DNA of 64,000 bases from Rhodocyclaceae bacterium (GCA_031555955.1 JAVBTY010000025.1:33205-97204), one strand, 5' to 3'. Shown: positions 1 through 43,719, counted from the first letter of the stretch. The notes: generated by a model not told the origin, from the sequence alone. Translations and numbers: made by a program.

Positions 1-1466
1 TTGATGACCTTGTTCATGTCGAGAATGACCACGTCCGGATGCCCGTCCTGCATCAGCAGCAGGTTTTCCAGCTTGTTGGAGGCGCCGAAGAACAGGCTGC
101 CGAACATGCGGTAGGCGAGGATGCGCGGCGTGTCGTCGGGGCGGGTGAGCATCTCGATGTCATGATGTTCCTCAAGCGCGATGCGCTCGATGCGGGTGAG
201 ATCGGATACGCGGTAGATGAAGAACAGACTCGCCAGCACCATGCCCAGTTCCACCGCCAGCGTCAGGTCGAACACCACGGTGACGAAGAAGGTGCCGAGC
301 AGGATGGAGCGGTACTGCACCGAATAGCGCGCCAGCTCCTTCGGTTTGAACGCGCGCCATTCCCCCATGTTGACCGAAACGAGCACGACGATGGCCGAGA
401 GCGTGGCGAGCGGGATGTAGCTTGCCAGCGGGGCGAGCACGAGCACGATGGCCAGCAGCACCAGCGAGTGGATCATGCCCGCCACGGGCGTGCGCCCGCC
501 GGTGCGGATGTTGGTGGCGGTGCGGGCGATGGCGCCGGTGGCGGCGAAACCGCCGAACAGCGGTGCGGCGAAGTTGGCGATGCCCTGTGCCATCAGCTCC
601 TGGTTGGGATCGTGGCGGTCGTCGATCTGGCTGTCGGCCACGCGCGCCGAGAGCAGCGATTCGATTGCGCCGAGCAGCGCGATGGTCAGCGTTGGCGCGA
701 TCAGCTTGCCCAGCGTGCCCAGCGAGAATTCGGGAAGAGACAGGCCCGGCAGATCGCGCGGAATGCCGCCAAAGCGGCTGCCGATGGTTTCCACCGGCAG
801 GCCGATCACGGCATTCACCGCGGTGGCGAGAATCAGCACCACCAGCGGCGCGGGCAGCCGCCGCATCCACGCCACGCGCGTGGAGAGCCGGTTCCACGCC
901 AGCAGGATGGTGAGCGAGGTTATGGCGAGCGCCACGGTGGGCCAGTCCAGCGTTGGCAGCGCGTCGGCCAGGGTTCTCATCTTGGCGAAGAATTCGCCCG
1001 GCAGGTTATCAATGCGCAGGCCGAGAAAATCCTTGATCTGCGAGATGAAAATCACCACGGCGATACCGTTGGTGAAGCCGATGACGACCGAGAGCGGAAT
1101 GAAACGGATCATCGACCCCAGCCGCAGCGCGCCCATGGCGAACAGCAGCACGCCCGACATCATCGTGGCGATAAGCAGGTTCTGCACGCCGTAATCGGCC
1201 ACGATGGCGTAAACGATGGGAATGAACGCCCCCGTGGGGCCGCCGATCTGCACGCGCGAGCCGCCCAGCGCGGAAATCAGGAATCCGGCGACGATCGCCG
1301 TCCAGATACCGGCCGTGGGCGACATGCCGGAGGCAATGGCGAACGCCATCGCCAGCGGCAGCGCGAGCACGCCAACGGTGATGCCGGCGGAAAGGTCGTG
1401 GGTGAAACTGTCCTTGCCGTAACCGGGCAGGGTGTCGAAAAGTTTGGGGCGGAACGGGATTTTCAT
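1..1466 (-). CDS. SulP family inorganic anion (sulfate/bicarbonate) permease, 3'-truncated by the window edge
   Basis: Not in the ORF track. Minus-strand reading from ATG 1466 gives MKIPFRPKLFDTLPGY...HDLSAGITVGVLALPLAMAFAIASG...GGSRVQIGGPTGAF...PATGAIART. These are SulP signatures, and the frame runs towards a STAS-like region (LFFGA) off the window edge. Confidence 0.9.
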   Translation of the reverse strand, partial: MKIPFRPKLFDTLPGYGKDSFTHDLSAGITVGVLALPLAMAFAIASGMSPTAGIWTAIVAGFLISALGGSRVQIGGPTGAFIPIVYAIVADYGVQNLLIATMMSGVLLFAMGALRLGSMIRFIPLSVVIGFTNGIAVVIFISQIKDFLGLRIDNLPGEFFAKMRTLADALPTLDWPTVALAITSLTILLAWNRLSTRVAWMRRLPAPLVVLILATAVNAVIGLPVETIGSRFGGIPRDLPGLSLPEFSLGTLGKLIAPTLTIALLGAIESLLSARVADSQIDDRHDPNQELMAQGIANFAAPLFGGFAATGAIARTATNIRTGGRTPVAGMIHSLVLLAIVLVLAPLASYIPLATLSAIVVLVSVNMGEWRAFKPKELARYSVQYRSILLGTFFVTVVFDLTLAVELGMVLASLFFIYRVSDLTRIERIALEEHHDIEMLTRPDDTPRILAYRMFGSLFFGASNKLENLLLMQDGHPDVVILDMNKVI

Positions 1467-2959: not shown

Positions 2960-3793
2960 TCAGCCTCGCATCCAGGCGCGGCCCGCCAGCCATACCTTGC
3001 GCAGCGGGGTGAGCGAGGTGCGGCGGTCGAGCACCAGGAAGCCGTCGGCGGCGATTTCCTTCAGCAGCGTGCGGTAGATGGCCGCCATCGCCAGGCCGGG
3101 GCGCTGCGCCTTGCGGTCCACCTCCGGCAGGTGCGCCATAGCCTGGCTGTAGAACTGTTCGGCGCGCCCGGCCTGGAAGCCCATCAGTTCGCGGAAAGCG
3201 TCTGAGTGGCGTGCGCCGAGAATGTCTTTCGCCGGTACGTTGAAGCGCTGCAGGTCTTCGTGCGGCAGGTAGATGCGGCCGCGCCGCGCATCCTCGCCCA
3301 CGTCGCGGATGATGTTGGTGAGCTGGAAGGCCATGCCGAGATCGTGCGCATACCTGAGTGTGGCGCGATCCTGGTAGCCGAAGATTTCCGCCGCGAGCAG
3401 GCCGACGACGCTGGCCACTCGGTAGCAGTAAAGCTGCAGCCCCCTGAAATCGAGATAGCGCGTCTGCGTCAGATCCATTTCCATGCCGTCGATGATTTCC
3501 AGCAGCTGTTCGCGCGGCAGGGTGAAATCGCGCAGCACGTCGCACAGCGCCTGGCCAACCGGGTGGGTGGGCGCGGCGTCATACACGCGGTCCAGTTCCC
3601 CCCGCCACCATTCGAGCGTTGCCTGCGCCAGCGAGGGGTCGTGGCATTCGTCCACCACGTCGTCCACCTCGCGGCAGAACGCGTACAGCGCAATGATCGC
3701 CCGCCGCCGCAGCGGCGGCAGGAACATGAAGCTGTAGTAGAAGCTGGAGCCGCTGCGGGCGGCCTTGTCCTGGCAGTAATCGTGAGGGTTCAT
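2960..3793 (-). CDS. hpnD: Presqualene diphosphate synthase HpnD
   Basis: Start trimmed to MNPHDYCQDKAARSGSSFYYSF. Motifs YAFCREVDDVVD, YCYRVASVVG, QLTNIIRDVGED..RGRIYLP. Confidence 0.92.
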   Translation of the reverse strand: MNPHDYCQDKAARSGSSFYYSFMFLPPLRRRAIIALYAFCREVDDVVDECHDPSLAQATLEWWRGELDRVYDAAPTHPVGQALCDVLRDFTLPREQLLEIIDGMEMDLTQTRYLDFRGLQLYCYRVASVVGLLAAEIFGYQDRATLRYAHDLGMAFQLTNIIRDVGEDARRGRIYLPHEDLQRFNVPAKDILGARHSDAFRELMGFQAGRAEQFYSQAMAHLPEVDRKAQRPGLAMAAIYRTLLKEIAADGFLVLDRRTSLTPLRKVWLAGRAWMRG

Positions 3794-4107
3794 GGAAAAA
3801 CCGGCCGCAGTCCGGCCCGCGGGCGCGTTCCGGCCGGACGTTTCTGGCAGGAAATGCGGCAGGCCGTGCAGCCGGGAGCGCCGGAATATGTAACCGCTGA
3901 TTATAGCTCTGGATGGCCCGGGGGGCTTTACGGCTGGAGGAGAGCGGCAGGGCTGTCGCATGGATGCTGCGCCGCGCGGCCCGGAATTCCCGGTTATCGC
4001 GAACGGAACCGGGCCTTTGCGCCCAATGGCGGCTTCTCGCGACAGGTTTTGAACAGGTTCCGGGCTGCGCCGCCGCCGGGGCGGCGGAACCGCGCTATCT
4101 GGCGTCG

Positions 4108-4968
4108 CTAGCTGCAGACCGCCGCAAGAATTTTCTGTTTGCTGGCGCGGGCGGCTTCCAGCAGTGAATCGAAGCTGGTTTTGTCGATGCTGGCGGCGCA
4201 GGAGCCGAACAGGTCTGTTTTGCGCCCGGGGTCGAGCAGGGCGTCGAAGGGATTGGGGGTTTCCGCCGCGAATCCCGCGATCAGCACCGTGTCGGCAAGG
4301 TTCGCCGGAGGCCACGAACCGCCGTAGGGATTTTCGTACTGGAAGGCGTCGAGCACGCTGTCCGGAAGCTCGAAGGTTTCGAGAACGGCGCGCCCGGCGG
4401 GTTCGCTCCAGATCGAAACGAACCCGGCGAAGCTGTTCAGGTTTTCTTCCAGCGCGGGGTAGGCCGATGCGCGGGCAAGGAGGAAGAACTGTCCGATGCT
4501 GGCCAGCATTCCGGCGAGCATGGCGGTGTCGGGGTTCACTGTGCCCAGGTGGCGGGCAAGGGCATGGGACCACGAGGCCACGTCTACCGAATGCATCCAT
4601 AAGCCCGATGCGATCAGGCGCATGTTCCGGCTGCGGTGATCCTGGGCGATCTGCTCCGCCGCCACCGAAAATGCGAGGCAGCGCAGGGAGGACAGGCCAA
4701 TGCGCCTGACGGCCTCGGTGACGCTGGTCACCTGTGCGCCGTGGGGATTGAGCATCGCCGTATTGGCCATGCGGATAACCTTGGCGCTGAGTACCGGCTC
4801 GGCCCGGACCAGACCGGCGATGTCTTCCACCCGGGAGCCAAGATCGTCGGCCAGGCGCTTGATGCGCATGGAGACGTCGAATGCGGTGGGAAAATTCAGA
4901 TGCCCTCTCCGCAGTTCTTCTTCGATCTGGCCGGAAAAAAGCTGTATCTGGGCGTCGAAACTGTTCAT
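4108..4968 (-). CDS. HDOD domain signal-transduction protein
   Basis: EPVLSAKVIRMAN, AVRRIG, LWMHSVDVA and AMLAGML are typical HDOD helices. The usual LHDIG is degenerate (LASIG). Confidence 0.8.
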   Translation of the reverse strand: MNSFDAQIQLFSGQIEEELRRGHLNFPTAFDVSMRIKRLADDLGSRVEDIAGLVRAEPVLSAKVIRMANTAMLNPHGAQVTSVTEAVRRIGLSSLRCLAFSVAAEQIAQDHRSRNMRLIASGLWMHSVDVASWSHALARHLGTVNPDTAMLAGMLASIGQFFLLARASAYPALEENLNSFAGFVSIWSEPAGRAVLETFELPDSVLDAFQYENPYGGSWPPANLADTVLIAGFAAETPNPFDALLDPGRKTDLFGSCAASIDKTSFDSLLEAARASKQKILAAVCS

Positions 4969-5014: not shown

Positions 5015-5584
5015 TCATTCTAGCGTGGCCGGAGTGGATGCCAGCCGGGACGTGTGCCGTTTCCGTCTGCGCCAGGCGCGGATCAGCCACGCCCGCCATG
5101 CGGCGCGGGTGGCGACGTAGCCCAGCGGGGAGAGCAGGGCGGCCAGCACCACGAGCCCCATGGCCAGGGGCGTGCCCAGGCCGATAACCCAGTCGGTGAG
5201 CGCGCCCAGCCAGGCGGCCAGACCTGATCCGTCCGGCTCGGGGGGCGGAGTAAAGCCGCTGCCGTCGTGGTGCAGCACGTGGGAGCCGAGTCGGTAGGCC
5301 AGGATGTAGATCGGCACCAGCGTGAAGGGATTCGTGTACAGCGTGGTCAGCAGGGCGAGCGGCAGGTTCACGCGAAACAGCACGCAGCACAGCGCCGCCG
5401 CGGGCATCTGGAACGGGCCGGGGATCAGCCCGCAGGCCAGTCCGGTGGCGATCGCGCCCGCGGCGGAATGGCGGTTCAGATGCCACAGCCGGGGATGGAG
5501 CAGGGTGTTGGCGAACGGGCGCAGCCACCGGCTTTCGCACACGGCTTCATGTTTTGGCAGGAAGCGTTTCAGATATTTGCGCAC
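5015..5584 (-). CDS. DUF2062 family membrane protein
   Basis: GTG start (VRKYLKRFLP); LWHLNRHSAAGA, PGPFQM, RVNLP..TLYTNPFT. Divergent from comEC, a common arrangement. Confidence 0.8.
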   Translation of the reverse strand: MRKYLKRFLPKHEAVCESRWLRPFANTLLHPRLWHLNRHSAAGAIATGLACGLIPGPFQMPAAALCCVLFRVNLPLALLTTLYTNPFTLVPIYILAYRLGSHVLHHDGSGFTPPPEPDGSGLAAWLGALTDWVIGLGTPLAMGLVVLAALLSPLGYVATRAAWRAWLIRAWRRRKRHTSRLASTPATLE

Positions 5585-5735
5585 GGGCTGTATTTTCTGG
5601 CGCGCGCGGATGGCGCGGCCAGTCGCCGGAATCCGGGAAGGGAATACGGAAAATTCTAGCAGGGCGCGTCCATTTTCGCGCAGGGTGGTCCCGCGCCTTG
5701 TTTTTGCGGCATGCCGGGAGGCATGATCCAGCGCC

Positions 5736-8159
5736 ATGCGGGTGGCGATCCTTTTTTTCGCAGCGGGTATCTGGTGGGTCCAGTGGTGGGCGGAGCTGCC
5801 GTCGCCCGCCGCGCTGTACGGCGGCGCGGCGGCCCTGCTGGCTGCGGCGTTCGCGCTGGCGTTATCCGCCAGCCGGTTGCCGCCAGGCTTCCGCAGGGCG
5901 CTGGCCTGCGCGCTGGCTTTGGGGATTGGCGTTGCCTGGGCGGCATTGCGGGCGGAATGGCGCCTTGCTGACGATTTGCCGATGGTGCTGGAAGGGCGTG
6001 ATCTCGCCGTAACGGGCGTGGTCGCGGAACTGCCGCAGCGCTCCGCAGAGGGCGTGCGCTTCGTTTTCGCCGTGGAACAGGCGCGGATCGCGGCGGAAGA
6101 GAAGGGGGAGGCGGAGGAGGGCGGAAACGCCGGAAACATCAGCCCGGCCACCGCCGCGGCGGAAGGGCCGGGGGAAGCCGCCGTGCCGCGGCGCATCCAG
6201 CTTGCCTGGTATCGCGGCCGTGATGAAACCGCGCCGCTGCCCGAGGTCCGGCCTGGCGAGCGCTGGCGCTTTTCGGTGCGTCTGCGGCGGCCTCATGGAG
6301 CGGTGAATCCGCAAGGGTTCGATTACGAAGCCTGGCTGCTGGAGCGGAACATCCGCGCCACCGGCTACGTGCGTGGCGGCGATGCGCAACGCCTGGAGAC
6401 GCATGCGGGCGGCGCGATGGCGCGGGTGCACGGGTTGCGCGGACGTATCCGCGACCGCTTTCTCGCCGCGCTGCCGGATGCGCCCTGGGCGGGCATGCTG
6501 GCGGCGCTGGCGGTGGGCGACCAGAGTGCGATCAGCGCGGGGCAGTGGGAGGTGTTCCGGCGTAGCGGCATCACCCACCTCGTCGCCATTTCCGGCATGC
6601 ACCTCTCTTTCATTGCCGCGCTCGCGGGGCTGTTTGCAGGCTGGATATGGCGGCGGCTGCCGGTGCTGGCGCTGCGTTTTCCCGCGCGCAAGGCCGCTGC
6701 CATCGGCGCGCTGCTCGCGGGGGGCGCATATGCGTTGCTGGCCGGGATGGGCATTCCGGTGCTGCGCGCGGTGATCATGCTTGCCATTGTCGCCAGCGCA
6801 TTGCTGCTGGGCCGCGAGCCGGCCCCGGGCCGGGTGCTGCTGCTGGCGCTGCTGGGCGTGCTGCTTGCCGATCCCTGGGCGGTGCTGGCGCCGGGGTTCT
6901 GGCTTTCCTTCGGTGCGGTCGCGGTAATCCTGCTGATGCTCGGCGGCCGTTTCGGACCGCCCCGGCCAGCGTGGCGCGAGGCGGTATCGCTGCAGCTGGG
7001 CATTACCCTGGCCATGGCTCCGGCGCTGCTGGTGCTGTTCCAGTCTTTTTCCGTGGTAGCGCCGCTGGCCAATGCGCTGGCGATTCCGCTGGTGAATATC
7101 CTCATCACGCCGCTTGTTCTGCTGGCGGCGGTGTTGCCGCTGGATGCGCTGCTGTGGCTGGCCCACTGGCTGGCGGCGCTGATGATGCACGGGGTGGAAT
7201 GGCTGGCCGCGCTGGATGGCGCGCTCTGGCGGCAGGCTGCGCCGCCGCCACTGCTGGCGGCGCTTGGTGTGGGCGCGGCGGGGGTGCTGCTGCTGCCGCG
7301 CGGCGCGCCCGGCAAGCTGGCGGCCGTGGCGGTGCTGGCGTGCCTGCTGGCGTGGCGGCCCGCGCGCCCCGCTGGCGGCGAATTCACCCTGACGGTGCTG
7401 GATGTGGGCAACGGGCTGGCGGTGCATGTGCAAACCGCCGCGCACGATCTGCTCTACGATGCCGGGCCCGCGTACAGCGCCACGGCGGACGCTGGCGAAC
7501 GCGCCGTGCTGCCTTACCTTGCCGGAGCGGGCGTGGAACGGCTCGACATGCTGGTGCTGTCGCACGACGACGAGGACCACACCGGCGGCGCGCATAGCGT
7601 GCTGGCCGGCGTGCCAGTGGGTCGTCTGCTTGCTTCCGGCGGCGATCCGGCTGTCACCGGCAGCGCCGTATCCCCCGAATTCTGCGCGGCGGGGAAAACG
7701 TGGACCTGGGATGGCGTCGCATTCGAGGTGCTGCACCCGGCCAGCCCCGCAACCGGCGCAAGGCGCGGCAACGACGATTCCTGCGTGCTGCGGATCGCGG
7801 CCCCCGGCGGCGCGGCGCTGCTCACCGGCGACATCGGCGCGCGCGCCGAGGCCGCCCTCGCCAGCCGCCTGGGCGATGCGCTGGCGAGCGAAATCGTGGT
7901 TGCCGCCCACCACGGCAGCCGCTCATCGTCCACGCCGCTTTTCGTCGATGCGGCGATGCCGCAGGCGGTGCTGTTTTCAGTGGGCTACCGCAACGTACAC
8001 GGCCACCCGCACCCGGCGGTATGGGCGCGCTGGAGCGAAGCCGGGGCGCGCAACTGGCGCACCGACAGCCAGGGCGCGCTGCGCGCCACGGTAACCGCCG
8101 CCGGCGTCGAGATCGAAGCGGAACGCCAGCGCGCGCCGCGTTACTGGCATGGGCGGTAG
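5736..8159 (+). CDS. comEC: DNA internalisation competence protein ComEC/Rec2
   Basis: NPQGFDYEAWL, HLVAISGMH competence motif, many TM segments, C-terminal metallo-beta-lactamase fold (LDVGNG, SHDDEDHTGG, HHGS, GHPH). Confidence 0.95.
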   Translation: MRVAILFFAAGIWWVQWWAELPSPAALYGGAAALLAAAFALALSASRLPPGFRRALACALALGIGVAWAALRAEWRLADDLPMVLEGRDLAVTGVVAELPQRSAEGVRFVFAVEQARIAAEEKGEAEEGGNAGNISPATAAAEGPGEAAVPRRIQLAWYRGRDETAPLPEVRPGERWRFSVRLRRPHGAVNPQGFDYEAWLLERNIRATGYVRGGDAQRLETHAGGAMARVHGLRGRIRDRFLAALPDAPWAGMLAALAVGDQSAISAGQWEVFRRSGITHLVAISGMHLSFIAALAGLFAGWIWRRLPVLALRFPARKAAAIGALLAGGAYALLAGMGIPVLRAVIMLAIVASALLLGREPAPGRVLLLALLGVLLADPWAVLAPGFWLSFGAVAVILLMLGGRFGPPRPAWREAVSLQLGITLAMAPALLVLFQSFSVVAPLANALAIPLVNILITPLVLLAAVLPLDALLWLAHWLAALMMHGVEWLAALDGALWRQAAPPPLLAALGVGAAGVLLLPRGAPGKLAAVAVLACLLAWRPARPAGGEFTLTVLDVGNGLAVHVQTAAHDLLYDAGPAYSATADAGERAVLPYLAGAGVERLDMLVLSHDDEDHTGGAHSVLAGVPVGRLLASGGDPAVTGSAVSPEFCAAGKTWTWDGVAFEVLHPASPATGARRGNDDSCVLRIAAPGGAALLTGDIGARAEAALASRLGDALASEIVVAAHHGSRSSSTPLFVDAAMPQAVLFSVGYRNVHGHPHPAVWARWSEAGARNWRTDSQGALRATVTAAGVEIEAERQRAPRYWHGR

Positions 8160-8167
8160 GGGAGGGT

Positions 8168-8196
8168 TTGACAGGAGGAGGGCTGTTCCCGGAAGT
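8168..8196 (+). promoter_or_regulatory. Possible sigma70 promoter for the cas operon (perfect -35, weak -10)
   Basis: TTGACA at 8168-8173 in the comEC-cas3 gap; no convincing TATAAT at 17 bp spacing. Confidence 0.25.
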
Positions 8197-8257
8197 TTGG
8201 CGCGCCCCACTTCGGGGATTACCATCGCGGTTCATTCTGCCCAGACAGGACGCAGCG

Positions 8258-10813
8258 ATGGAATTTGCAGCACATATCCGGGGAAAGGATAAACAACGGC
8301 AAGAGCTTTCCGTGCATCTGCGTGAGGTGGCTGCTATTGCCGCGGAGACCGCTGAAAAAATCGGACTGGCCCCTGCGGGGCGGGTGGCTGGTCTGGCGCA
8401 TGATCTTGGCAAGTACAGCGCTGCTTTTCAGATCTATATCCTCTCGGCGGAAGGGCTGCTTGATCCGGACAGGGACGATGAGTGGGTCGATGCCCGCCGC
8501 CTGAAGGGAAAAATCGATCATTCCAGCGCGGGCGCGCAATGGATCTGGCAGGCACTGGGTATTCAGGCGCAGCCGCCGCGCAACAGCGAAGAGAAGATGC
8601 GGCTGCTCGCGGCGCAAATGCTGGCGCTGACCGCGGCTTCGCACCACGGAGGGCTGATCGACTGCGTTGCTCCTGGCGTGCAGCAGGCAGGGCAGGACGG
8701 CTTTACGCGCCGCATCGGGAAAGACGGTGGAGAGACGCATCTGGAGGAGGTGCGGATGCGGCTGGACGAAGATGTCCGGCGGCTGTTGCAGGAACTGCTG
8801 GCTTCGGAAGAACTGGTCGCATCGGTTCGTGCGCTGCACCAGCGTATTTCCCGCACTGAAAAACAGCACGAAGGCAACAGGGCGATCCTGCAATGCAAGC
8901 TTGGGCTGGCGACGCGTTTTTTATTGAGCAGCCTGGTTGAGGGCGATCACCGAAGCAGCAGCGAATTTGAGAGTCCTGAAACAGTACGGATGCGCGGAGA
9001 GCAGAAGCCGGACTGGCGCGCGCTGGCCACCTTGCTGGAAAACGCTCTCGGAAATTTTTCCTGCAAACCCGGACAGGAAAAAATTCATGCGATCCGGGCG
9101 GATATCGCGGCGCACTGTCTGGCCGCGGCACCCCGCGAGCGGGGCATCTACACGCTGACCGTGCCGACGGGCGGCGGAAAAACCCTGGCCAGCCTGCGCT
9201 TTGCGCTGCACCACGCGCACGAACATGGGCTGGACCGCATCATCTACGTGATCCCTTTCACCTCGATCATCGACCAGAACGCCAGGGTTGTGCGCGGCAT
9301 TCTGGAGCCGGAAGGCGTTGCGCCGGAAAGTGTGCTGCTGGAACACCACTCCAACCTGCTGCCGGAAAAACTCACCTGGCGGCACAAGCTGCAGTCGGAA
9401 AACTGGGATGCGCCCGTTATCTACACCACCAGCGTGCAATTGCTGGAAGCGCTGTTCGGCGGGGGTACGCGCAATGCGCGGCGTATGCATGCGCTGGCGC
9501 GCGCGGTGCTGATTTTTGATGAGGTGCAGGCGCTACCGCTCAGATGTGCGCACCTGTTCGCCAATGCACTGAACTTTCTGGTGGAGCAGGCGGGCAGCAG
9601 TGCGGTGCTGTGTACGGCGACGCAGCCGCTGCTGCACGAGATTGATCACGATCACAAAAGTGGCCGGGAAAAGGTGGCCAGTGAAAAAAATGGCGCGGTA
9701 CGGCTGGCCCTCGACCATGAACTGATGCCGGATGTGGGAAAACTGTTCGCCGACCTTAAACGGACCGACATCATCAACCGCTGTCGGCCGGGCGGCTGGA
9801 GCCACGAAGCCGCCGCCGCGCTGGCTGTCGATACACAGCGTGAATTCCGCAGCACGCTGTGTATCGTCAACACCCGGGATGCGGCGCGTCAAATATTCCA
9901 GAACTGCCGCGCGCGAACAGAAACGCCGGTATTCCACCTGAGCACCAGCATGTATCCGGCGCATCGGCGCGAGGTGCTGGACCGGATCAGGGCCCGGCTG
10001 AACGGAAATGAGCCGGTGATCTGCGTCAGCACCCAGCTGATCGAGGCCGGGGTCGATGTCAGCTTTGGCTCGGTGATCCGTTCCATGGCGGGGATGGATT
10101 CCATCGCCCAGGCGGCCGGCCGCTGTAACCGCAATGGCGAACTGGCAACGCCCGCGCCGGTGTTCGTCATCAATCTGGCGCAGGAAAACATGGGGTTTCT
10201 GCCAGAAATCGCTGACGGACAACAGGTCAGTGAGCGCCTGTTTGATGAGTTCGCCAGAGAGCCAGCCCGTTTTCAGAACGATCTTCTGGCCGAACCGGGC
10301 ATGCGCAAATATTTTGAGTATTACTTTTTTCGCCGCACGGCATGCATGGGTTATCCGGTTTGTCTGGACCGGATGAGCTTCGCGGAAAAAGATAATTCTG
10401 ATACGACGCTGCTGTCGCTGCTGGGCGGCAATGACCGGGCTGTGAGCGAATACAGGAACAATAACGACGGACAGCCGCCCCCTTACCCGCTGCATCAGGC
10501 ATTCCGCACCGCCGCCCAGATTTTCAGGGCGATTGATTCGCCTGCGCAGGGGGTAGTGGTTCGCCACGGCGAAGGGGAAAACATTGTGGCCGGGCTGAAC
10601 GGGGAGCAGCATCCGGCGCGGATGAATGAACTGCTGCGCCAGGCGCAGCAGTTCAGCGTGAATCTGTTTGAATATCAGATCAGGGCATTGCAGGCGGAAG
10701 GGGCGCTGCACCAGACGTTATCCGGGATCTGGTATCTTGATCCGGGCTACTATCACCCTGATTCCGGCGTCAGCGCCACGCGATGCGCGCCAATGGAAAC
10801 GCAGATGTGGTAG
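8258..10813 (+). CDS. cas3: CRISPR-associated helicase/nuclease Cas3 (type I-C)
   Basis: Start trimmed to MEFAAH. HD nuclease motifs HL..V, HDLGK, DHS, HHGGL, SSLVEGD. SF2 helicase motifs PTGGGKT, DEVQ, TATQP, STQLIEAGVD, QAAGRCNR. Confidence 0.95.
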   Translation: MEFAAHIRGKDKQRQELSVHLREVAAIAAETAEKIGLAPAGRVAGLAHDLGKYSAAFQIYILSAEGLLDPDRDDEWVDARRLKGKIDHSSAGAQWIWQALGIQAQPPRNSEEKMRLLAAQMLALTAASHHGGLIDCVAPGVQQAGQDGFTRRIGKDGGETHLEEVRMRLDEDVRRLLQELLASEELVASVRALHQRISRTEKQHEGNRAILQCKLGLATRFLLSSLVEGDHRSSSEFESPETVRMRGEQKPDWRALATLLENALGNFSCKPGQEKIHAIRADIAAHCLAAAPRERGIYTLTVPTGGGKTLASLRFALHHAHEHGLDRIIYVIPFTSIIDQNARVVRGILEPEGVAPESVLLEHHSNLLPEKLTWRHKLQSENWDAPVIYTTSVQLLEALFGGGTRNARRMHALARAVLIFDEVQALPLRCAHLFANALNFLVEQAGSSAVLCTATQPLLHEIDHDHKSGREKVASEKNGAVRLALDHELMPDVGKLFADLKRTDIINRCRPGGWSHEAAAALAVDTQREFRSTLCIVNTRDAARQIFQNCRARTETPVFHLSTSMYPAHRREVLDRIRARLNGNEPVICVSTQLIEAGVDVSFGSVIRSMAGMDSIAQAAGRCNRNGELATPAPVFVINLAQENMGFLPEIADGQQVSERLFDEFAREPARFQNDLLAEPGMRKYFEYYFFRRTACMGYPVCLDRMSFAEKDNSDTTLLSLLGGNDRAVSEYRNNNDGQPPPYPLHQAFRTAAQIFRAIDSPAQGVVVRHGEGENIVAGLNGEQHPARMNELLRQAQQFSVNLFEYQIRALQAEGALHQTLSGIWYLDPGYYHPDSGVSATRCAPMETQMW

Positions 10814-10863
10814 TAGCAGGACGGCTGTCAATAAAAACGCATAAGACTTATCCGGGAGAACCC

Positions 10864-11595
10864 ATGCACGACACCGCCAGAAACACCCTGGAGTTCAGGG
10901 TGCACGCCAGATTCGCCCTGTTTACCGATCCCCTGACGCGCCTCGGCGGCGAAAAATGCTCCTATCACCTGCCGACCTACGAAGCGCTGAAAGGCATTGC
11001 CAAATCGATCTACTGGAAGCCGACCCTGATCTGGGTGATCGACGCCGTGCGCATCATGAGGCCGGTCCGCACCCAGACCAAGGGCATGAAACCGCTGGAT
11101 TACGCCAGCGGCGGCAATACGCTGGCGATCTATACTTTTCTTGCCGATGTCGAATACCAGGTGCGCGCGCATTTTATCTGGAACGAAGCGCGCCCCGAAC
11201 TGGCGCGGGACCGTATCGACGGCAAGCACTTCGCCATTGCCCGGCGCAGCCTGGAAAAAGGCGGCCGCCAGGATATTTTTCTCGGCACGCGTGACTGCCA
11301 GGGCTACGTCGAGCCATGCGTCTTCGGTAGTGGCGCCGGGCACTACGATAGTGCTGGCGAGCTGGCCTACGGCCTGATGTTCCATGGCTTTGATTACCCG
11401 GACGAAACCGGCGGCAGCGATCTCGTCAGCCGCTTCTGGCAGCCTGTATTGCGGAACGGCTACCTCGAATTTCCCGTCCCGGAAGCGTGCGCCATCCGTA
11501 AAACCGTGCGCCCGATGCAGGTCAAGGATTTTGGCTTTGGGGAAAACCTTCAGGACGTGGAAAGCGCCTGCCAGCAATGGGAGGCGGAGCCATGA
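10864..11595 (+). CDS. cas5: Cas5c (Cas5d) crRNA-processing Cascade subunit
   Basis: ALFTDPLTRLGGEKCSYHLPTYEALKGI..SIYWKPT, DGKH, IFLGTRDCQGY; GGAGA RBS upstream of ATG 10864. Confidence 0.95.
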   Translation: MHDTARNTLEFRVHARFALFTDPLTRLGGEKCSYHLPTYEALKGIAKSIYWKPTLIWVIDAVRIMRPVRTQTKGMKPLDYASGGNTLAIYTFLADVEYQVRAHFIWNEARPELARDRIDGKHFAIARRSLEKGGRQDIFLGTRDCQGYVEPCVFGSGAGHYDSAGELAYGLMFHGFDYPDETGGSDLVSRFWQPVLRNGYLEFPVPEACAIRKTVRPMQVKDFGFGENLQDVESACQQWEAEP

Positions 11596-13562
11596 GCTGG
11601 ATACAGCAGCTGTATGAAACCTACGAACAGTGCGCCGGCAGGGAAGCGCCCGGCGGGCAGCCGCTGCTTCCGGTCAGCCATACCGCCCAGCAGGCCCATG
11701 TCGAGGTGTGCATCAATGGCGAAGGCGGTTTTATGTCGGCCCGGGCGCTGTCGCCGCGCGCGGAAACCATTCTTCCCGCAACCGAAAAGTCCGCCGGGCG
11801 CACCAGCGGCGAAGCGGCGCATGCGCTGGCCGACAAAATCCAGTATTGCGCTGGAGACTATTCTGATTTTGGCGGGAAAAAGGCTTCGTACTTCGAAGGT
11901 TATATCGCGCAGCTGCGCGGCTGGTGCGCATCGCCGCACGGGCATCCCAAGGCGTGGGCCGTGCTGCGCTATCTCGAAAAAGGCACGCTGGTCGCTGATC
12001 TGCTGGAGTCCGGGGTGCTGCATGCCCGCGATGGGGTACTGCTGACCGCCTGGGATGGCGGCGAAGAGGGCAGAGAAGGAAAGAGCAGGGAAATACCCGA
12101 TATCTTCCGCCAGCTCACACCCAAAAACGAAAAGGGCGTCAAGGTGCAGGATCAGGGCGATGCCTTGGTGCGCTGGCGCGTTGTCATGTCCGGCGATCCG
12201 CAGGATCAGACCTGGCTTGATGGCAGCCTGTACCAGGCATGGCTGGATTACGATGCCTCCAACAGGCAGCTGCGTGGTGTGTGCATGTCCCGGGGCGAAG
12301 AAACGGCCATTGCCGAACAGCATCCGGCCAAACTGCGTCATGGTGGCGACAAGGCCAAGCTGATCTCCTCCAACGACACTACCGGTTATACCTTTCGCGG
12401 CCGTTTCGAGGAGGCCGATCAGGCCTGCACCGTTGGTTTCGACGTTACGCAAAAAGCCCATAACGCCTTGCGCTGGCTGCTTTCCGACAAAAAACGCACC
12501 TTCCAGAATGGCGAACAGGCCATCGTCGGCTGGGAAACCGCGGGTCATGAAATTCCCAGTCCCCTGCACGCCAGCGATGAATTTATCGACGATGAAGAGA
12601 TGCTGCCCGAAGGCCCCGACGCCGGGCGTCAGGATGCCGGGCGGATTTTCGCCCAACGGCTGAAGCGCAGGATCGCCGGATACCAGAGCGTGCTTGGATC
12701 CGCCGCCCGCGTGGTCGTCATGGCGCTTGACGCCGCTACGCCCGGGCGCATGGCTATCGTCTATTACCGCGAGCTGACCGGCAGTGAATTTCTGGCCCGT
12801 CTGGATGCCTGGCACGCCGGTTTTGCCTGGCCGCAGCGTTACGGCAAAGAACGCAGCTTTATCGGCGCGCCTGCGCCACACGATATTGCCGCAGCCGCAT
12901 TCGGGCACGATGTGGTGGGGCAGGACAAAAAGCGCAAGCTGCTCAAGGCCACGGTCGAGCGGCTGCTGCCCTGCATCATCGATGGCGTTCCGCTGCCGCG
13001 CGATCTTTTGCAGTGTGCGCTCAATCGCGCCACCCACCCGCAATCAATGCCGCGCTGGGAATGGAACAAGGTTCTGGGCATTGCCTGCAGTCTTTATAAA
13101 GGATCGCATCCACAGGAGAACTATCAGATGGCTCTGGAAACAGAACGCACCACGCGTGATTATCTGTACGGCCGACTGCTGGCCGTGGCCGACCGGCTGG
13201 AAGGGCTGGCGCTGTACGTGGCCAATGAAACGCGTGACACCAGCGCGGCGAAGCTGCTGCCGCGTTTTGCCGCGCATCCCTACCTTACCTGGGCGCAGCT
13301 GGAAATCGCCCTGAATCCGTACAAATCGCGCCTGCGCGCCAAACGTCCAGGGATGCTGCAGGATCTCGAGAAGCTCCAGCAGCACATCATGGCGACCTTT
13401 CAGGGCGATGAATTCCGCGATGACAGCAGGCTTAGCGGCGAATTTCTGCTGGCCTACCATTGCCAGAGCCAGGCGCTATGGGATCTGTGGAAAAAAGACG
13501 GCAATGCCGCCGCCGGTGATTCTGATTCTGCCGGGACATCATCAACTTTGAACGGAAAATAA
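11592..13562 (+). CDS. cas8c: Cas8c (Csd1) large subunit
   Basis: MSWIQQLYETY, PATEKSAGRT, LADKIQY, AKLISSND, QKAHNALRWL, ATPGRMAI, RDYLYGRLLA, EFLLAYHCQ. ATGA overlap with the cas5 stop. Confidence 0.95.
   Translation: MSWIQQLYETYEQCAGREAPGGQPLLPVSHTAQQAHVEVCINGEGGFMSARALSPRAETILPATEKSAGRTSGEAAHALADKIQYCAGDYSDFGGKKASYFEGYIAQLRGWCASPHGHPKAWAVLRYLEKGTLVADLLESGVLHARDGVLLTAWDGGEEGREGKSREIPDIFRQLTPKNEKGVKVQDQGDALVRWRVVMSGDPQDQTWLDGSLYQAWLDYDASNRQLRGVCMSRGEETAIAEQHPAKLRHGGDKAKLISSNDTTGYTFRGRFEEADQACTVGFDVTQKAHNALRWLLSDKKRTFQNGEQAIVGWETAGHEIPSPLHASDEFIDDEEMLPEGPDAGRQDAGRIFAQRLKRRIAGYQSVLGSAARVVVMALDAATPGRMAIVYYRELTGSEFLARLDAWHAGFAWPQRYGKERSFIGAPAPHDIAAAAFGHDVVGQDKKRKLLKATVERLLPCIIDGVPLPRDLLQCALNRATHPQSMPRWEWNKVLGIACSLYKGSHPQENYQMALETERTTRDYLYGRLLAVADRLEGLALYVANETRDTSAAKLLPRFAAHPYLTWAQLEIALNPYKSRLRAKRPGMLQDLEKLQQHIMATFQGDEFRDDSRLSGEFLLAYHCQSQALWDLWKKDGNAAAGDSDSAGTSSTLNGK
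13128..13562 (+). CDS. cas11: Cas11c small subunit translated from an internal start within cas8c
   Basis: AGGAG at 13114-13118, 9 nt before an in-frame ATG at 13128 (MALETERTTRDYLYGRLLA..., 144 aa). Internal Cas11 translation is established for type I-C. Confidence 0.75.
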   Translation: MALETERTTRDYLYGRLLAVADRLEGLALYVANETRDTSAAKLLPRFAAHPYLTWAQLEIALNPYKSRLRAKRPGMLQDLEKLQQHIMATFQGDEFRDDSRLSGEFLLAYHCQSQALWDLWKKDGNAAAGDSDSAGTSSTLNGK

Positions 13563-13575
13563 GAGGCATTCACCC

Positions 13576-14469
13576 ATGAGTACTCCACTGAGCCAGAAAA
13601 TCGACTTCGCCGTCATCCTGCGAGTCGCCAACGCCAATCCCAACGGTGATCCGCTCAACGGCAACCGTCCGCGCGCGGGTTACGACGGCTATGGCGAAAT
13701 CACCGATGTCTGCCTGAAGCGCAAACTGCGTGACCGTCTGCAGGAGCTGGGCGAAGCTATCTTCGTACAGTCTGATGACCGCAAAAACGATGACGCCAGA
13801 AGTCTGCAATCCCGCGCCAGCGCCGTACTTGGTGAGAAGCTTGGTTCGGACGAAACCCGTCAGATCGCGTGCAGCACCTGGTTCGACGTACGCGCTTTCG
13901 GACAGCTTTTCGCTTACAAGGCGCCGAAAAAGAAAGCCGCCAAAAAAGGCGAAAGCGAAGAGGGCGCCAGTGAAGGCGACAGCGGCATTTCCATCGCTAT
14001 CCGTGGTCCGGTCACCGTTCAGTCCGCTTTTAGTCTGCAGCCGGTCGAGATTACCAGCACCCAGATCACCAAAAGCGTTAGCGGCGAAGATCCCAAAGAG
14101 GGCAAAAACCGCGCCTCCGACACCATGGGCATGAAGCACCGTGTCGATCAGGCAATCTATGCTTTCTACGGCAGCATGAACCCGCAACTGGCGGAGCGCA
14201 CAGCTTTTTCCGATGAGGATGCCGGAAAAATCAAGGCGGCGTTGCCACGGCTGTTCGAAAACGATGCGTCGTCCGCCAGACCGGAAGGCAGCATGGAGGT
14301 GCTCAAGGTCATATGGTGGCAGCATGGCAGCAAGGCCGGACAGTATTCTTCGGCCAAGGTGCACCAGTCGCTGCGTGAGCGGCTGAGCGCCCAGGATGGC
14401 AGCTTCAGCGAAGAAGAGCTGAAAAACGCCTTGTCCGGGCTGAAACCTGAAATTATCCCCGGGTTTTGA
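13576..14469 (+). CDS. cas7: Cas7 (Csd2) backbone subunit
   Basis: ANPNGDPLNGNRPR, DVCLKRKLRD, WFDVRAFG, IRGPV, QITKSV, DTMGMKH, FENDASSARPEG. Confidence 0.95.
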   Translation: MSTPLSQKIDFAVILRVANANPNGDPLNGNRPRAGYDGYGEITDVCLKRKLRDRLQELGEAIFVQSDDRKNDDARSLQSRASAVLGEKLGSDETRQIACSTWFDVRAFGQLFAYKAPKKKAAKKGESEEGASEGDSGISIAIRGPVTVQSAFSLQPVEITSTQITKSVSGEDPKEGKNRASDTMGMKHRVDQAIYAFYGSMNPQLAERTAFSDEDAGKIKAALPRLFENDASSARPEGSMEVLKVIWWQHGSKAGQYSSAKVHQSLRERLSAQDGSFSEEELKNALSGLKPEIIPGF

Positions 14470-14560
14470 TAGCCGCACGACGGATGGAGAGTAGCCGCAG
14501 GTTGCGCTCCGTCCCGCGTGGCGGGTTGCCCGTTCTGGATGCCAGACGCCGGGAGCTGTC

Positions 14561-15253
14561 ATGACCGGGGTCGTGATTCTCCCCGGACTGGATGGCGCGG
14601 CGGTTCTTCGGGAACCGTTCTGCGCGCATCTGCGGAGGCTGGGCGTTCCGGCGCGGGCGATTGCTTATCCGGCCGATCTGGCGTCCGGTTACGGGGAACT
14701 GGAATCTTTCGTCCGGCCCCGGCTGCCTGCGGACCGGCCGTTCGTGCTGCTGGGCGAATCCTTTTCCGGACCGCTGGCGATCCGGATCGCCGCCCGCGCT
14801 CCGGCCGGGCTTGCCGGGCTGGTTCTTTCCACGACTTTCGCCGGATCGCCCGTACCGCTGTCCCGGCTGCTGGCGGCGCTGGCCCGGTTCGCGCCCGCCC
14901 GGCTGCCGGAGGTTGCGCTGTCGTGGCTGCTGCTGGGCCGCCAGACTACGCCGGAACAGCTGTGTTCCATGCGGGATGTGCTTGGCGCGGTCAGCCCCGC
15001 CGTGCTCCGTGCAAGGGCCGTCGCCGCCCTGCAGGCCGATGTCGCGGCGCTGCTTCCAGCGGTTTCCGTCCCGGCGCTCTGTCTGCGGGCGACGCATGAC
15101 CGTCTGCTGGCCGGATCTGCCCAGCGTGCGCTTATGAACGGCCTGCCCCGTGCCCGCATGCTTGAGGCGCCAGGGCCGCATTGCCTGCTGCAAACGGCTG
15201 CCGGGCTGTGCGCCCGGGCGGTTGCGGATTTCTGCGCGGATCTGGTTCCCTGA
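14561..15253 (+). CDS. Alpha/beta hydrolase
   Basis: LPGLDG oxyanion region, GESFSG nucleophile elbow, Asp (HDRL) and His (GPH) candidates. Confidence 0.8.
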   Translation: MTGVVILPGLDGAAVLREPFCAHLRRLGVPARAIAYPADLASGYGELESFVRPRLPADRPFVLLGESFSGPLAIRIAARAPAGLAGLVLSTTFAGSPVPLSRLLAALARFAPARLPEVALSWLLLGRQTTPEQLCSMRDVLGAVSPAVLRARAVAALQADVAALLPAVSVPALCLRATHDRLLAGSAQRALMNGLPRARMLEAPGPHCLLQTAAGLCARAVADFCADLVP

Positions 15254-42792: not shown

Positions 42793-43719
42793 GTGACCAT
42801 GACCGGGATCCTTTTTCTTGAGCAATGCCTGAACGGAGTGCAGTTCGGGCTGATGCTGTTTCTTCTGGTGGCGGGCCTGACGCTGATTTTCGGCATCATG
42901 GACCTGATCAATCTGGCGCATGGTTCGCTGTACATGACCGGCGCCTATCTCGTCGCCACGTTCGCGCAGGCCAGCGGTTCCTTCTGGCTCGCGGTTCCGC
43001 TGGGGATCGCTGCTACCGCTGCTGTGGGCATGATGGTTGAGGTTCTTGTCCTGCGCGGTCTTTACCGGCGGGATCACCTGAGCCAGGTGCTCGCTACTTT
43101 CGCGCTGATCCTGATCGCCAACGAAACCACGCGCGCCATCTGGGGTGTGCAGCCGCTCAGGCTCGATGTGCCGCAGGCGCTGTCCGGTTCGGTCGAACTG
43201 CTGCCGGGGCTGCATTATTCCGCCTTCCGGCTCGCCATCATCGCCGTGGGGCTGACCGTCGCCGTGCTGCTCTGGCTGCTGGTGGCGCGCACCCGCGTCG
43301 GCATGCTGGTGCGCGCGGGCGCATCCAACCGCCGCATGGCGACCGCGATGGGGACGAACATTCCATGGCTGTTCACCGCCGTTTTCGGCGTCGGCGCGGC
43401 CTTGTGCGCGCTGGCCGGGGCGATGCTCGGGCCGCTGCTGGAGGTGCAGGTCGGCATGGGCGAGAGCGTGCTGATCCTCGCTTTCATCACCGTGGTTATC
43501 GGTGGAACCGGTTCGATGCGCGGCGCTTTTGTCGGCGCCCTGCTCGTCGGCATCATCGATACCTTCGGGCGCGCTTTCATTCCGTCCGCCCTCAGGGCCG
43601 TGCTGCCGCCGTCGTTCGCCGATGCCGCCGGTCCTTCGCTGGCCGCGATCTCCATTTATCTGCTGATGGTGATCGTGCTGTTCTGGAAACCACGGGGGCT
43701 ATGCCCCGCTGGGGGCTGA
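42793..43719 (+). CDS. Liv-type ABC permease (LivH-like)
   Basis: GLTLIFG...INLAHG, VIGGTGS. Confidence 0.9.
   Translation: MTMTGILFLEQCLNGVQFGLMLFLLVAGLTLIFGIMDLINLAHGSLYMTGAYLVATFAQASGSFWLAVPLGIAATAAVGMMVEVLVLRGLYRRDHLSQVLATFALILIANETTRAIWGVQPLRLDVPQALSGSVELLPGLHYSAFRLAIIAVGLTVAVLLWLLVARTRVGMLVRAGASNRRMATAMGTNIPWLFTAVFGVGAALCALAGAMLGPLLEVQVGMGESVLILAFITVVIGGTGSMRGAFVGALLVGIIDTFGRAFIPSALRAVLPPSFADAAGPSLAAISIYLLMVIVLFWKPRGLCPAGG

Follow-up and report, generated by a model that had tools for sequence, protein, structure and literature searches.

Does a block of CRISPR-Cas effector genes that has neither adaptation genes nor an array in its surroundings represent an orphan system? The question is raised by the type I-C genes cas3, cas5c, cas8c and cas7, which lie in a 64,000-nucleotide stretch of bacterial DNA (the window, i.e. 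the whole stretch that was analysed). A sequence-only reading had found no cas4, cas1 or cas2 and no array in the window, and had interpreted the block as an acquired, orphan module that uses a distant array, borrows adaptation in trans or is repurposed with non-canonical guides. Both absences are borne out: none of the three adaptation genes is present within the 64-kb window, and TRF detects no array there. The features of the block and its flanks are listed in Table 1.

Table 1. Features of the type I-C effector block and its borders, in positions of the window.
Feature	Coordinates	Strand	Evidence
comEC/rec2, resident left flank, outside the system	5736..8159	+	TIGR00361, 332 bits
Host intergenic DNA with conserved element, ends at left insertion junction 8230/8231	8160..8230	+	G006 alignment
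cas3, HD nuclease and SF2 helicase, 851 aa	8258..10813	+	TIGR01587 and TIGR01596, over cut-offs
cas5c, predicted Cas5d-type pre-crRNA endonuclease, 243 aa	10864..11595	+	TIGR01876, 237 bits
cas8c/csd1, large subunit, 661 aa	11577..13562	+	TIGR01863, 343 bits; PF09709, 395 bits
Putative internal cas11c, small subunit in frame inside cas8c, 144 aa	13128..13562	+	Conserved in-frame ATG
cas7/csd2, backbone subunit, 297 aa	13576..14469	+	TIGR02589, 303 bits
91-bp spacer with right insertion junction	14470..14560	.	Homology to G006 absent
Alpha/beta hydrolase, resident right flank, outside the system	14561..15253	+	PF12146

All four effector genes pass the curated NCBIfam/Pfam cut-offs used for the family calls, including those for the subtype signature genes cas8c/csd1, cas7/csd2 and cas5c (TIGR01863, TIGR02589 and TIGR01876). 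Profile searches of Cas3 also matched PF22590 and PF18019, beside TIGR01587 and TIGR01596, and the protein consists of an HD domain, a helicase core and the Cas3 C-terminal domain. The genes had been described as full length and tightly coupled. They are full length. A longer cas5 ORF begins at 10783; the start codon is probably the ATG at 10864, judged by the SD motif GGGAGA 5 nt upstream of it, which would leave a gap of 50 nt between cas3 and cas5 and no overlap. Further downstream, cas5 and cas8c overlap by 19 nt and cas8c and cas7 are separated by 13 nt. The ribosome binding site AGGA (8247-8250) precedes cas3, and the hydrolase starts exactly 91 bp after the stop codon of cas7, as had been reported.

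The catalytic motifs of the proteins are all in place. The HD residues of Cas3 (HD, DH, HH and D) and its helicase motifs I (GGGKT), II (DEVQ), III (TATQ) and VI (QAAGRCNR) are all kept in an alignment with 11 relatives, in agreement with the earlier description; the DExQ form of motif II is clade-wide. Cas5 contains both SIYWKP and DGKH. When it is aligned to the Cas5d of Bacillus halodurans (PDB 4F3M, E 2e-89), the Tyr of the former and the Lys-His of the latter correspond to chain residues Y48 and K118/H119, which we take to be Y46 and K116/H117 of the native Cas5d triad after a 2-residue tag offset. By this alignment Cas5 keeps the equivalents of the catalytic triad that had been recognized in it. 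Moreover, codon 518 of Cas8c is an in-frame ATG that is invariant in 12 of 12 aligned sequences and is preceded in all of them by a purine-rich SD-like motif at a distance of 7-12 nt (here AGGAGA, 13114-13119). Production of Cas11 from the large-subunit gene by internal translation has been described (bioRxiv 10.1101/2020.04.18.045682), and it is probable that a cas11c small subunit is made from cas8c in the same manner.

Judged by comparison with the closest same-genus genome (G006), the effector block is an acquired insertion, as had been proposed. G006 has comEC, about 650 bp, and then the same hydrolase and downstream genes, and cas genes are absent from this site; the comEC and the hydrolase that flank the block are 74-77% and 74% identical, respectively, to these neighbours. 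Cas8c matches in the same-genus genomes searched are only 25% identical. The GC content of the block is 60.2%, compared to 68.9% for the left and 67.0% for the right flank, which confirms the lower value first estimated by eye. Homology to G006 holds up to position 8230, is gone beyond it, is not found in the 91-bp spacer and returns at the ATG of the hydrolase. What has been inserted between comEC and the hydrolase is a bare cassette of 6.3 kb whose own DNA extends just 27 nt upstream of cas3, so that transcription would probably start from a resident promoter or depend on read-through from comEC. Just upstream of cas3 lies a host intergenic element that is conserved with G006 (TTGGCG-N17-TACCAT, ~8205-8228) and could act as promoter; a consensus scan of the region upstream of cas3 detected no sigma-70-like promoter.

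The genome containing the window is a 2.38-Mb draft of 115 contigs (80.7% complete, 1.7% contamination) that looks like a metagenome bin; the bacterium belongs to the Azoarcus/Thauera group of the Zoogloeaceae. Searching all of it for distant arrays and cas1 recovered exactly one cas unit besides the effector block, which lies on contig C55. This unit is found on contig C46 beside nadE and consists of cdd1-cas4-cas1c-cas2, an A+T-rich leader and a type I-C array. Its cas genes match TIGR00372, TIGR03640 (the I-C subtype of Cas1, 519 bits) and TIGR01573. Thus, the block is not an orphan: a cognate cas4-cas1c-cas2 set with leader and array is present on C46 and C27 of the same assembly, as in a simple split locus. 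The seven cas genes, of which cas4, cas1 and cas2 are on C46, are each present in a single copy, all ORFs are intact and full length, and no cas6 lies within or adjoining either cluster.

At its start, next to the leader and cas2, C46 carries 9 repeats that are all identical and end in GGATTGAAAC, and the end of C27 carries 5 repeats of the same kind. The outermost two of the latter are degenerate and mark a trailer end, putatively that of the C46 array. Across the two contigs there are at least 14 repeats, which represent the canonical 32-nt I-C repeat with a hairpin and end in ATTGAAAC, and 12 spacers of 34-36 nt, all of them unique. None of the 12 spacers is self-targeting (the longest chance matches are ≤21 nt). 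When five spacers and the spacer-like sequence of a solitary repeat unit (see below) were used to search IMG/VR, a single spacer found a match, at 33/36 positions, in a phage-family gene (phrog_2045). The viral contig is related, not identical, and the protospacer is flanked by TGC and not by the TTC PAM of type I-C. C55 itself carries no array detectable by a spaced k-mer array finder, and the genome's own I-C repeat is not found on it in a fuzzy search allowing ≤7 mismatches. The same k-mer finder flagged contigs C9, C15 and C107, whose candidates turned out to be tandem coding repeats. The silence of Rfam on the window is uninformative, because the gathering-threshold scan is also blind to the true arrays on C46 and C27.

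With cas7 followed by the hydrolase on C55, and nadE and cdd1 preceding cas4 on C46, there is no single contiguous operon with the array. Both arrangements recur in an independent Logan assembly of run SRR23967709, which contains one contig with cas8c-cas7, the 91-bp gap and Hydrolase_4, the same junction as on C55, and another with nadE-Cdd1-Cas4-Cas1-Cas2. Cdd1 is a small helix-hairpin-helix gene (PF11731) that overlaps the start of cas4 by 8 nt. It is not a recurrent partner of cas4, being found in none of 80 related I-C loci and in none of five genomes of the genus, and three close homologues lie in unrelated housekeeping contexts. The region upstream of nadE is variable within the genus, and the genes found there in G006 have no counterpart in the assembly; compared to genomes of the same genus, C27 has a mosaic structure.

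The two halves share a common ancestry. The closest relative of both is L010, a contiguous I-C locus of the MAG Proteobacteria bacterium Cu122P3bin14, to which Cas7 is 85% (next best 75%) and Cas1 77% identical (next best 60%). This pair of values is mid-range among pairs of contiguous loci that have similar Cas7 identity. Moreover, the repeat is identical to the first two repeats of L010, both leaders share GTTCGCGGAAAC, and effector and adaptation genes differ in GC by the same offset in L010. dN/dS relative to L010 is 0.04-0.14 overall (cas3 ~0.12, cas7 ~0.04), values that cover the whole lineage and not the period after the split, because dS is near saturation. Together with the intact ORFs, the unique spacers that do not match the genome itself and the one match to a phage-family gene, these values are signs that the system is in use. 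Most probably, the block represents the interference part of a single ordinary type I-C system whose two modules occupy two chromosomal sites. In two complete genomes of the genus, the corresponding host sites are separated by ~175 kb. Of the three modes of action proposed for the effector-only block, use of a distant array is the most likely; adaptation is not borrowed from another system, because both halves are nearest to L010, and nothing points to repurposing with non-canonical guides.

A search for the origin of the split yielded no mechanism. A single inversion is ruled out, since comEC directly adjoins the hydrolase in G006. The borders of the block show no IS element, transposase, target-site duplication or inverted repeat, and the only direct or inverted repeat of ≥8 nt that links them is one 8-mer of no apparent meaning. 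One might instead assume two independent acquisitions from related donors, an effector-only cassette at comEC and an adaptation unit with array at nadE, that complement each other by chance. Each unit is indeed a clean insertion in a conserved host context, with no traces of the other half beside it; one inversion cannot derive both sites from one locus, and cdd1 accompanies the adaptation half only. This is nevertheless quite unlikely, as both halves lie at mutually consistent distances from L010 and their GC offset mirrors that within this contiguous locus. Moreover, among the 80 related I-C loci compared, 76 had enough downstream sequence and 76/76 were contiguous, which makes the split unusual; with 0/76 being effector-only, donors of such a cassette look rare.

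The flanks of C55 and C46 match the same G006 genome with similar identity (74-86% and 67-88%) and conserved gene order, the cas genes are single-copy, and none of the contigs has cas7 joined to cas4 or shows one of the two sites free of cas genes. All this makes it very unlikely that the effector contig and the adaptation/array contigs were binned together from co-occurring strains, at least one of which would then be truly orphan, even though the assembly is bin-like in fragmentation, completeness and contamination and both junctions occur in only one sequencing run. The split, uncoupled modules might also belong to a decaying system, in which the effector cassette has ceased to be expressed or to be loaded with crRNA. 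Its native promoter could have been lost, because just 27 nt remain upstream, and both the promoter scan before cas3 and the sole protospacer match, which lacks a TTC PAM, would fit. Decay is highly improbable, however, given seven full-length genes with intact catalytic motifs, identical leader-side repeats and a conserved leader motif, and the element shared with G006 just before cas3 could supply the promoter.

Starting from the observed gene content, intactness, common ancestry and separate locations of the halves, the split type I-C system would be expected, from the established biology of the subtype, to be expressed, to load crRNA in trans and to carry out interference as follows. Cas4-Cas1-Cas2 would extend the array with new spacers at its leader end, and the RNA transcribed from the array would reach the effector proteins by diffusion. 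Cas5c would cleave every repeat at the base of the hairpin, and Cas5c, Cas8c, Cas11c and Cas7 would assemble around the crRNA. Finally, Cas3 would be recruited and degrade the matching DNA. A contiguous operon is typical of the type I-C family and not required for function.

In canonical type I-C systems (Dvulg/Csd), such as those of Desulfovibrio vulgaris, Bacillus halodurans and Neisseria lactamica, the order is cas3-cas5c-cas8c-cas7-cas4-cas1-cas2-array. The system described here shares with them the seven genes with their subtype-specific families, the Cas5c residues, the lack of cas6 at the clusters, the probable cas11c, the repeat type and the spacer lengths. Unlike them, it is cut between cas7 and cas4, with the halves at two chromosomal sites; its effector half lacks its own upstream region, and its adaptation half contains the additional Cdd1. 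Separate adaptation and interference cassettes occur in the type I-A systems of Sulfolobus. As in other split or partial loci that act in trans, the effector genes would rely on adaptation genes and an array located at another place in the genome. In contrast to borrowing between systems, the two halves are cognate and share both subtype and nearest relative, and the breakpoint lacks a mobile element. Incomplete or minimal CRISPR-cas configurations, some of them functional, have been described (PMC8616872); a literature search on split type I-C loci returned only general reviews.

The locus illustrates how tempting it is to misread a cas block that contains effector genes only: its presence in a 64-kb window is no evidence for an orphan or repurposed system as long as the rest of the genome has not been examined. 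It also provides a clean natural example of type I-C interference and adaptation modules at separate sites, and a cassette trimmed to 27 nt before its first start codon and set behind host DNA, beside the competence gene comEC, is informative with regard to the modularity and transplantability of type I-C systems. The case as such opens no new question; only a candidate crRNA-like unit ahead of the adaptation genes could gain interest.

This solitary repeat-like unit lies on C46 upstream of cdd1-cas4 and comprises a hairpin, a perfect 11-nt 5' handle (TGGATTGAAAC), ~30 nt of spacer-like sequence and a strong 3' hairpin. Outside the array, the 11-mer occurs nowhere else in the assembly, and the fold, with hairpins on both sides, has a z of -4.4. 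Solitary repeat units of type I-C systems, which have a hairpin and the conserved 3'-terminal 7 nt / 11-nt handle, give rise to crRNA-like regulatory RNAs (crlRNA/CRISIS; bioRxiv 10.1101/2024.12.27.630466). Layout and size of the unit are as reported for these, whereas its upstream hairpin does not reach the handle directly but stops 5 nt short of it, and the unit precedes the adaptation genes instead of lying between cas3 and cas5c. Local and genome-wide scans of the assembly, which is ~81% complete, found no target with a TTC or TTA PAM, so that a defining feature of crlRNAs, a spacer-like part with partial complementarity to a promoter beside such a PAM, is missing; the best local match was 9/15 and the best genome-wide match with a PAM 12/15, which is about chance. 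A match of 13 nt on C94 turned out to be unrelated, and the cas7-cas4 gaps of 31 related loci contain no solitary repeat units. Conceivably, the RNA of the unit, loaded by the distant Cascade, couples the two halves, which would place the adaptation operon, or a gene outside the assembly, under the control of effectors encoded ~175 kb away. We consider this unlikely; if true, the split would be more than a neutral rearrangement.

The sequence-only reading had described a full-length type I-C effector block without an array in the window, and family models, motif comparisons and array searches show that this observation is correct. Cas3 retains all HD and helicase motifs when aligned with 11 relatives, and its motif II has the form DEVQ, as it does in each of the 11. 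Cas5 matches Cas5d of B. halodurans (PDB 4F3M; E-value 2e-89), and the alignment to this structure places a Tyr (in SIYWKP) and a Lys-His pair (in DGKH) at the catalytic positions of Cas5d. Translation of cas5 likely starts at ATG 10864, which is preceded by the Shine-Dalgarno motif GGGAGA and would leave a gap of 50 nt between cas3 and cas5. Moreover, cas8c contains the in-frame ATG 13128 with AGGAGA ahead of it, and this internal ATG is invariant, each time with a Shine-Dalgarno-like motif, in 12 aligned Cas8c genes. The small subunit Cas11c has been reported to be made by internal translation (bioRxiv 10.1101/2020.04.18.045682), and ATG 13128 fits the start of such a putative Cas11c. The cas block has a GC content of 60.2%, compared to 67-69% in both flanks, and lies between comEC and an alpha/beta hydrolase gene that starts 91 bp past cas7. 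The block is acquired, with Cas8c matches in same-genus genomes being at best 25% identical, and it is effector-only at this site. No array was detected in the window by TRF, nor on the whole 111-kb contig (C55, with the window at 33205-97204) by a k-mer array finder and a fuzzy repeat search.

The cognate adaptation genes and array are found on two other contigs of the draft assembly (2.38 Mb in 115 contigs; 80.7% complete, 1.7% contamination). A Cas1 family search recovers a single cas1, which is of type I-C (TIGR03640, 519 bits) and lies on the 14-kb contig C46, and by tblastn each of the seven cas genes is single-copy in the assembly. C46 opens inside a CRISPR array of nine identical 32-nt repeats (GTCGCGCCCCTCGCGGGCGCGTGGATTGAAAC, minus strand), followed by an A+T-rich leader, cas2 (encoding 96 aa), cas1, cas4, a cdd1-family gene and the divergent nadE. 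Five further repeats in the same orientation are located at the end of contig C27; the two outermost deviate by two mismatches and one, a pattern typically expected of an array's trailer end. Beyond this array, a fuzzy search found no I-C repeat elsewhere in the assembly. Three other picks of the array finder, on C9, C15 and C107, were rejected, being GC-rich tandem repeats in protein-coding sequence with periods of ~18-36 nt.

The system is thus not the orphan that the sequence-only reading had proposed, since C46 and C27 carry exactly what that reading named as evidence against it, a cognate cas4-cas1-cas2 and array elsewhere. With its own cas4-cas1-cas2 it has no need of adaptation genes from a different system, and there is no sign of the non-canonical guides that had also been considered.

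Coordinates of the features discussed (window positions unless a contig or locus is named)
Feature	Location	Strand	Remark
comEC	5736-8159		left flank of the cas block
cas3	8258-10813	+	over curated family cut-offs
cas5c (type I-C)	10783/10864-11595	+	over curated family cut-offs
cas8c/csd1	11577-13562	+	over curated family cut-offs
cas7/csd2	13576-14469	+	over curated family cut-offs
Spacer with viral match	C46 368-403		in C46 array
Protospacer	L109 (IMGVR_UViG_3300008255_000444) 1417-1452		inside gene of phage family phrog_2045, function not known
cdd1	C46 2729-3037	-	helix-hairpin-helix, PF11731, 102 aa; 8-nt overlap with cas4 start
Candidate solitary repeat unit	C46 (L002) ~3215-3345	-	outside the window; 5' handle at ~3297
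VbhA-like and Fic/VbhT-like genes	C46 5071-6472	+	directly downstream of nadE
Small ORF at cas-cassette site of G006	L096 (G006:C22) ~5380-5750	-	~125 aa
Example cas7-cas4 gap insertions	L010:6642-7493, L027:4630-5481, L079:10899-11933, L086:10876-11691		related loci
Further gap insertions	L074:3534-4580, L058:11306-11812, L069:10885-11304		related loci
Rejected array-finder picks	C9 ~42880-43200, C15 ~10820-11180, C107 ~4050-4300		protein-coding repeats

To ask whether the two halves are one system, we retrieved from the genome collection 80 loci whose Cas7 proteins are close relatives, and judged the 76 with enough sequence downstream of cas7. In all 76, cas4-cas1-cas2 come after cas7, and wherever the sequence reached far enough, an array comes next. 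None shows a split, which is therefore unusual among close relatives; separated CRISPR modules as such are a known configuration (PMC8616872). The nearest neighbor of both halves is the same contiguous locus, L010, from the metagenome-assembled genome Proteobacteria bacterium Cu122P3bin14. Its Cas7 is 85% identical (next best relative 75%) and its Cas1 77% (next best 60%). Where the Cas7 proteins of two contiguous loci are 84-87% identical, their Cas1 proteins show identities of 59-93%, with a middle value near 75-77%, and the pair of our genome and L010 falls exactly where co-inherited halves should. Moreover, the first two repeats of L010 are identical to ours, and the leaders have GTTCGCGGAAAC in common. 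The adaptation genes lie 4-6 GC points above the effector genes in both genomes, indicating that the difference is a property of the genes and does not reflect separate histories.

Gene order around both halves is conserved in G006, the closest same-genus genome. Identities to G006 are 74-86% for the genes that flank the cas block (C55), and 67-88% for nadE together with the genes on its far side (C46). The named nadE homologues put the lineage among Azoarcus, Thauera and Aromatoleum (77% identity in Azoarcus sp. DD4). In the Logan assembly of run SRR23967709, a 3.1-kb contig carries partial cas8c, an identical cas7, the 91-bp gap and Hydrolase_4, and a 4.2-kb contig carries nadE, Cdd1, Cas4, an identical Cas1 and Cas2. 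Thus, both non-canonical junctions are reproduced by another assembler, and a single sample yields both. Two complete genomes of the genus, G003 and G001, have nadE and comEC on the same strand, at a distance of ~175 kb.

A single inversion as the origin of the split can be dismissed, because in G006 comEC and the same hydrolase gene are neighbors, separated by ~650 bp with one small ORF; from this arrangement, two events are needed. At the left border, homology to G006 continues past the comEC stop and across an intergenic element that both genomes share (TTGGCG-N17-TACCAT before cas3, TTGGCG-N17-TAGCAT before the small ORF of G006), and it ends at window position 8230; at the right border, it sets in again at the hydrolase start codon. 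Since homology is lost only 27 nt before the cas3 ATG, the cassette came with its ribosome-binding site and without a promoter region, and we infer that it is transcribed from host DNA. A consensus promoter scan found no sigma-70 site ahead of cas3, and the cassette is bordered by neither IS elements nor tRNA genes, nor by repeats in direct or inverted orientation. Synteny between C46 and G006 is lost ~15 nt upstream of where nadE truly starts (about C46:3465), and the region beyond is variable within the genus.

The breakpoint falls in the gap between cas7 and cas4. Across related type I-C loci this gap is a recurrent site for inserted genes, which encode Bro-N, RhuM, Fic, HipA_C, HEAT repeat, 23S_rRNA_IVP (23S-rRNA-IVS-type) or second Cas4 proteins. 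One locus (L080) has a 22-repeat array in the gap, and two (L076 and L083) carry a second array upstream of cas3.

Several features bear on function. All genes are intact. For the five genes with computable dS, comparison with L010 gives pairwise dN/dS values of 0.04-0.14, which, with dS near or at saturation, speak for long-term constraint only. We recovered 12 spacers of 34-36 nt; no two are identical, and none has a match in the genome. Five were searched against IMG/VR, and one, the third from the leader end of the C46 array, hits a viral contig with 33 of its 36 positions matching, including an uninterrupted stretch of 32. The 5' flank of this protospacer is TGC, not TTC.

A candidate solitary repeat unit lies ~185-250 nt upstream of cdd1 in operon orientation. 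Within it, a long hairpin is followed by a perfect 11-nt type I-C 5' handle (TGGATTGAAAC, the sole copy outside the array in the whole assembly), a spacer-like stretch of ~30 nt and a strong hairpin of 10-12 bp on the 3' side; the fold of the unit has a z-score of -4.4. This layout matches type I-C crRNA-like regulatory RNAs (bioRxiv 10.1101/2024.12.27.630466). We found no PAM-flanked target, locally or genome-wide in the 80.7% complete assembly, and no such unit in the cas7-cas4 gap of related loci. The unit may be what is left of a repeat; alternatively, it may be a regulator with a target in the part of the genome that the assembly lacks.

As judged from the gene arrangement, cdd1 itself appears to share a transcript with the adaptation genes. 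None of the 80 related I-C loci has it, nor does any of five same-genus genomes; its close homologues, with 65-76% identity, occur mostly in Burkholderiales, in unrelated genomic contexts. Finally, the Fic gene downstream of nadE has no match in the compared stretches of G006, G003 and G001; it encodes a Fic/VbhT-like adenylyltransferase and, together with the adjoining gene for a VbhA-like antitoxin domain protein, is a toxin-antitoxin pair.
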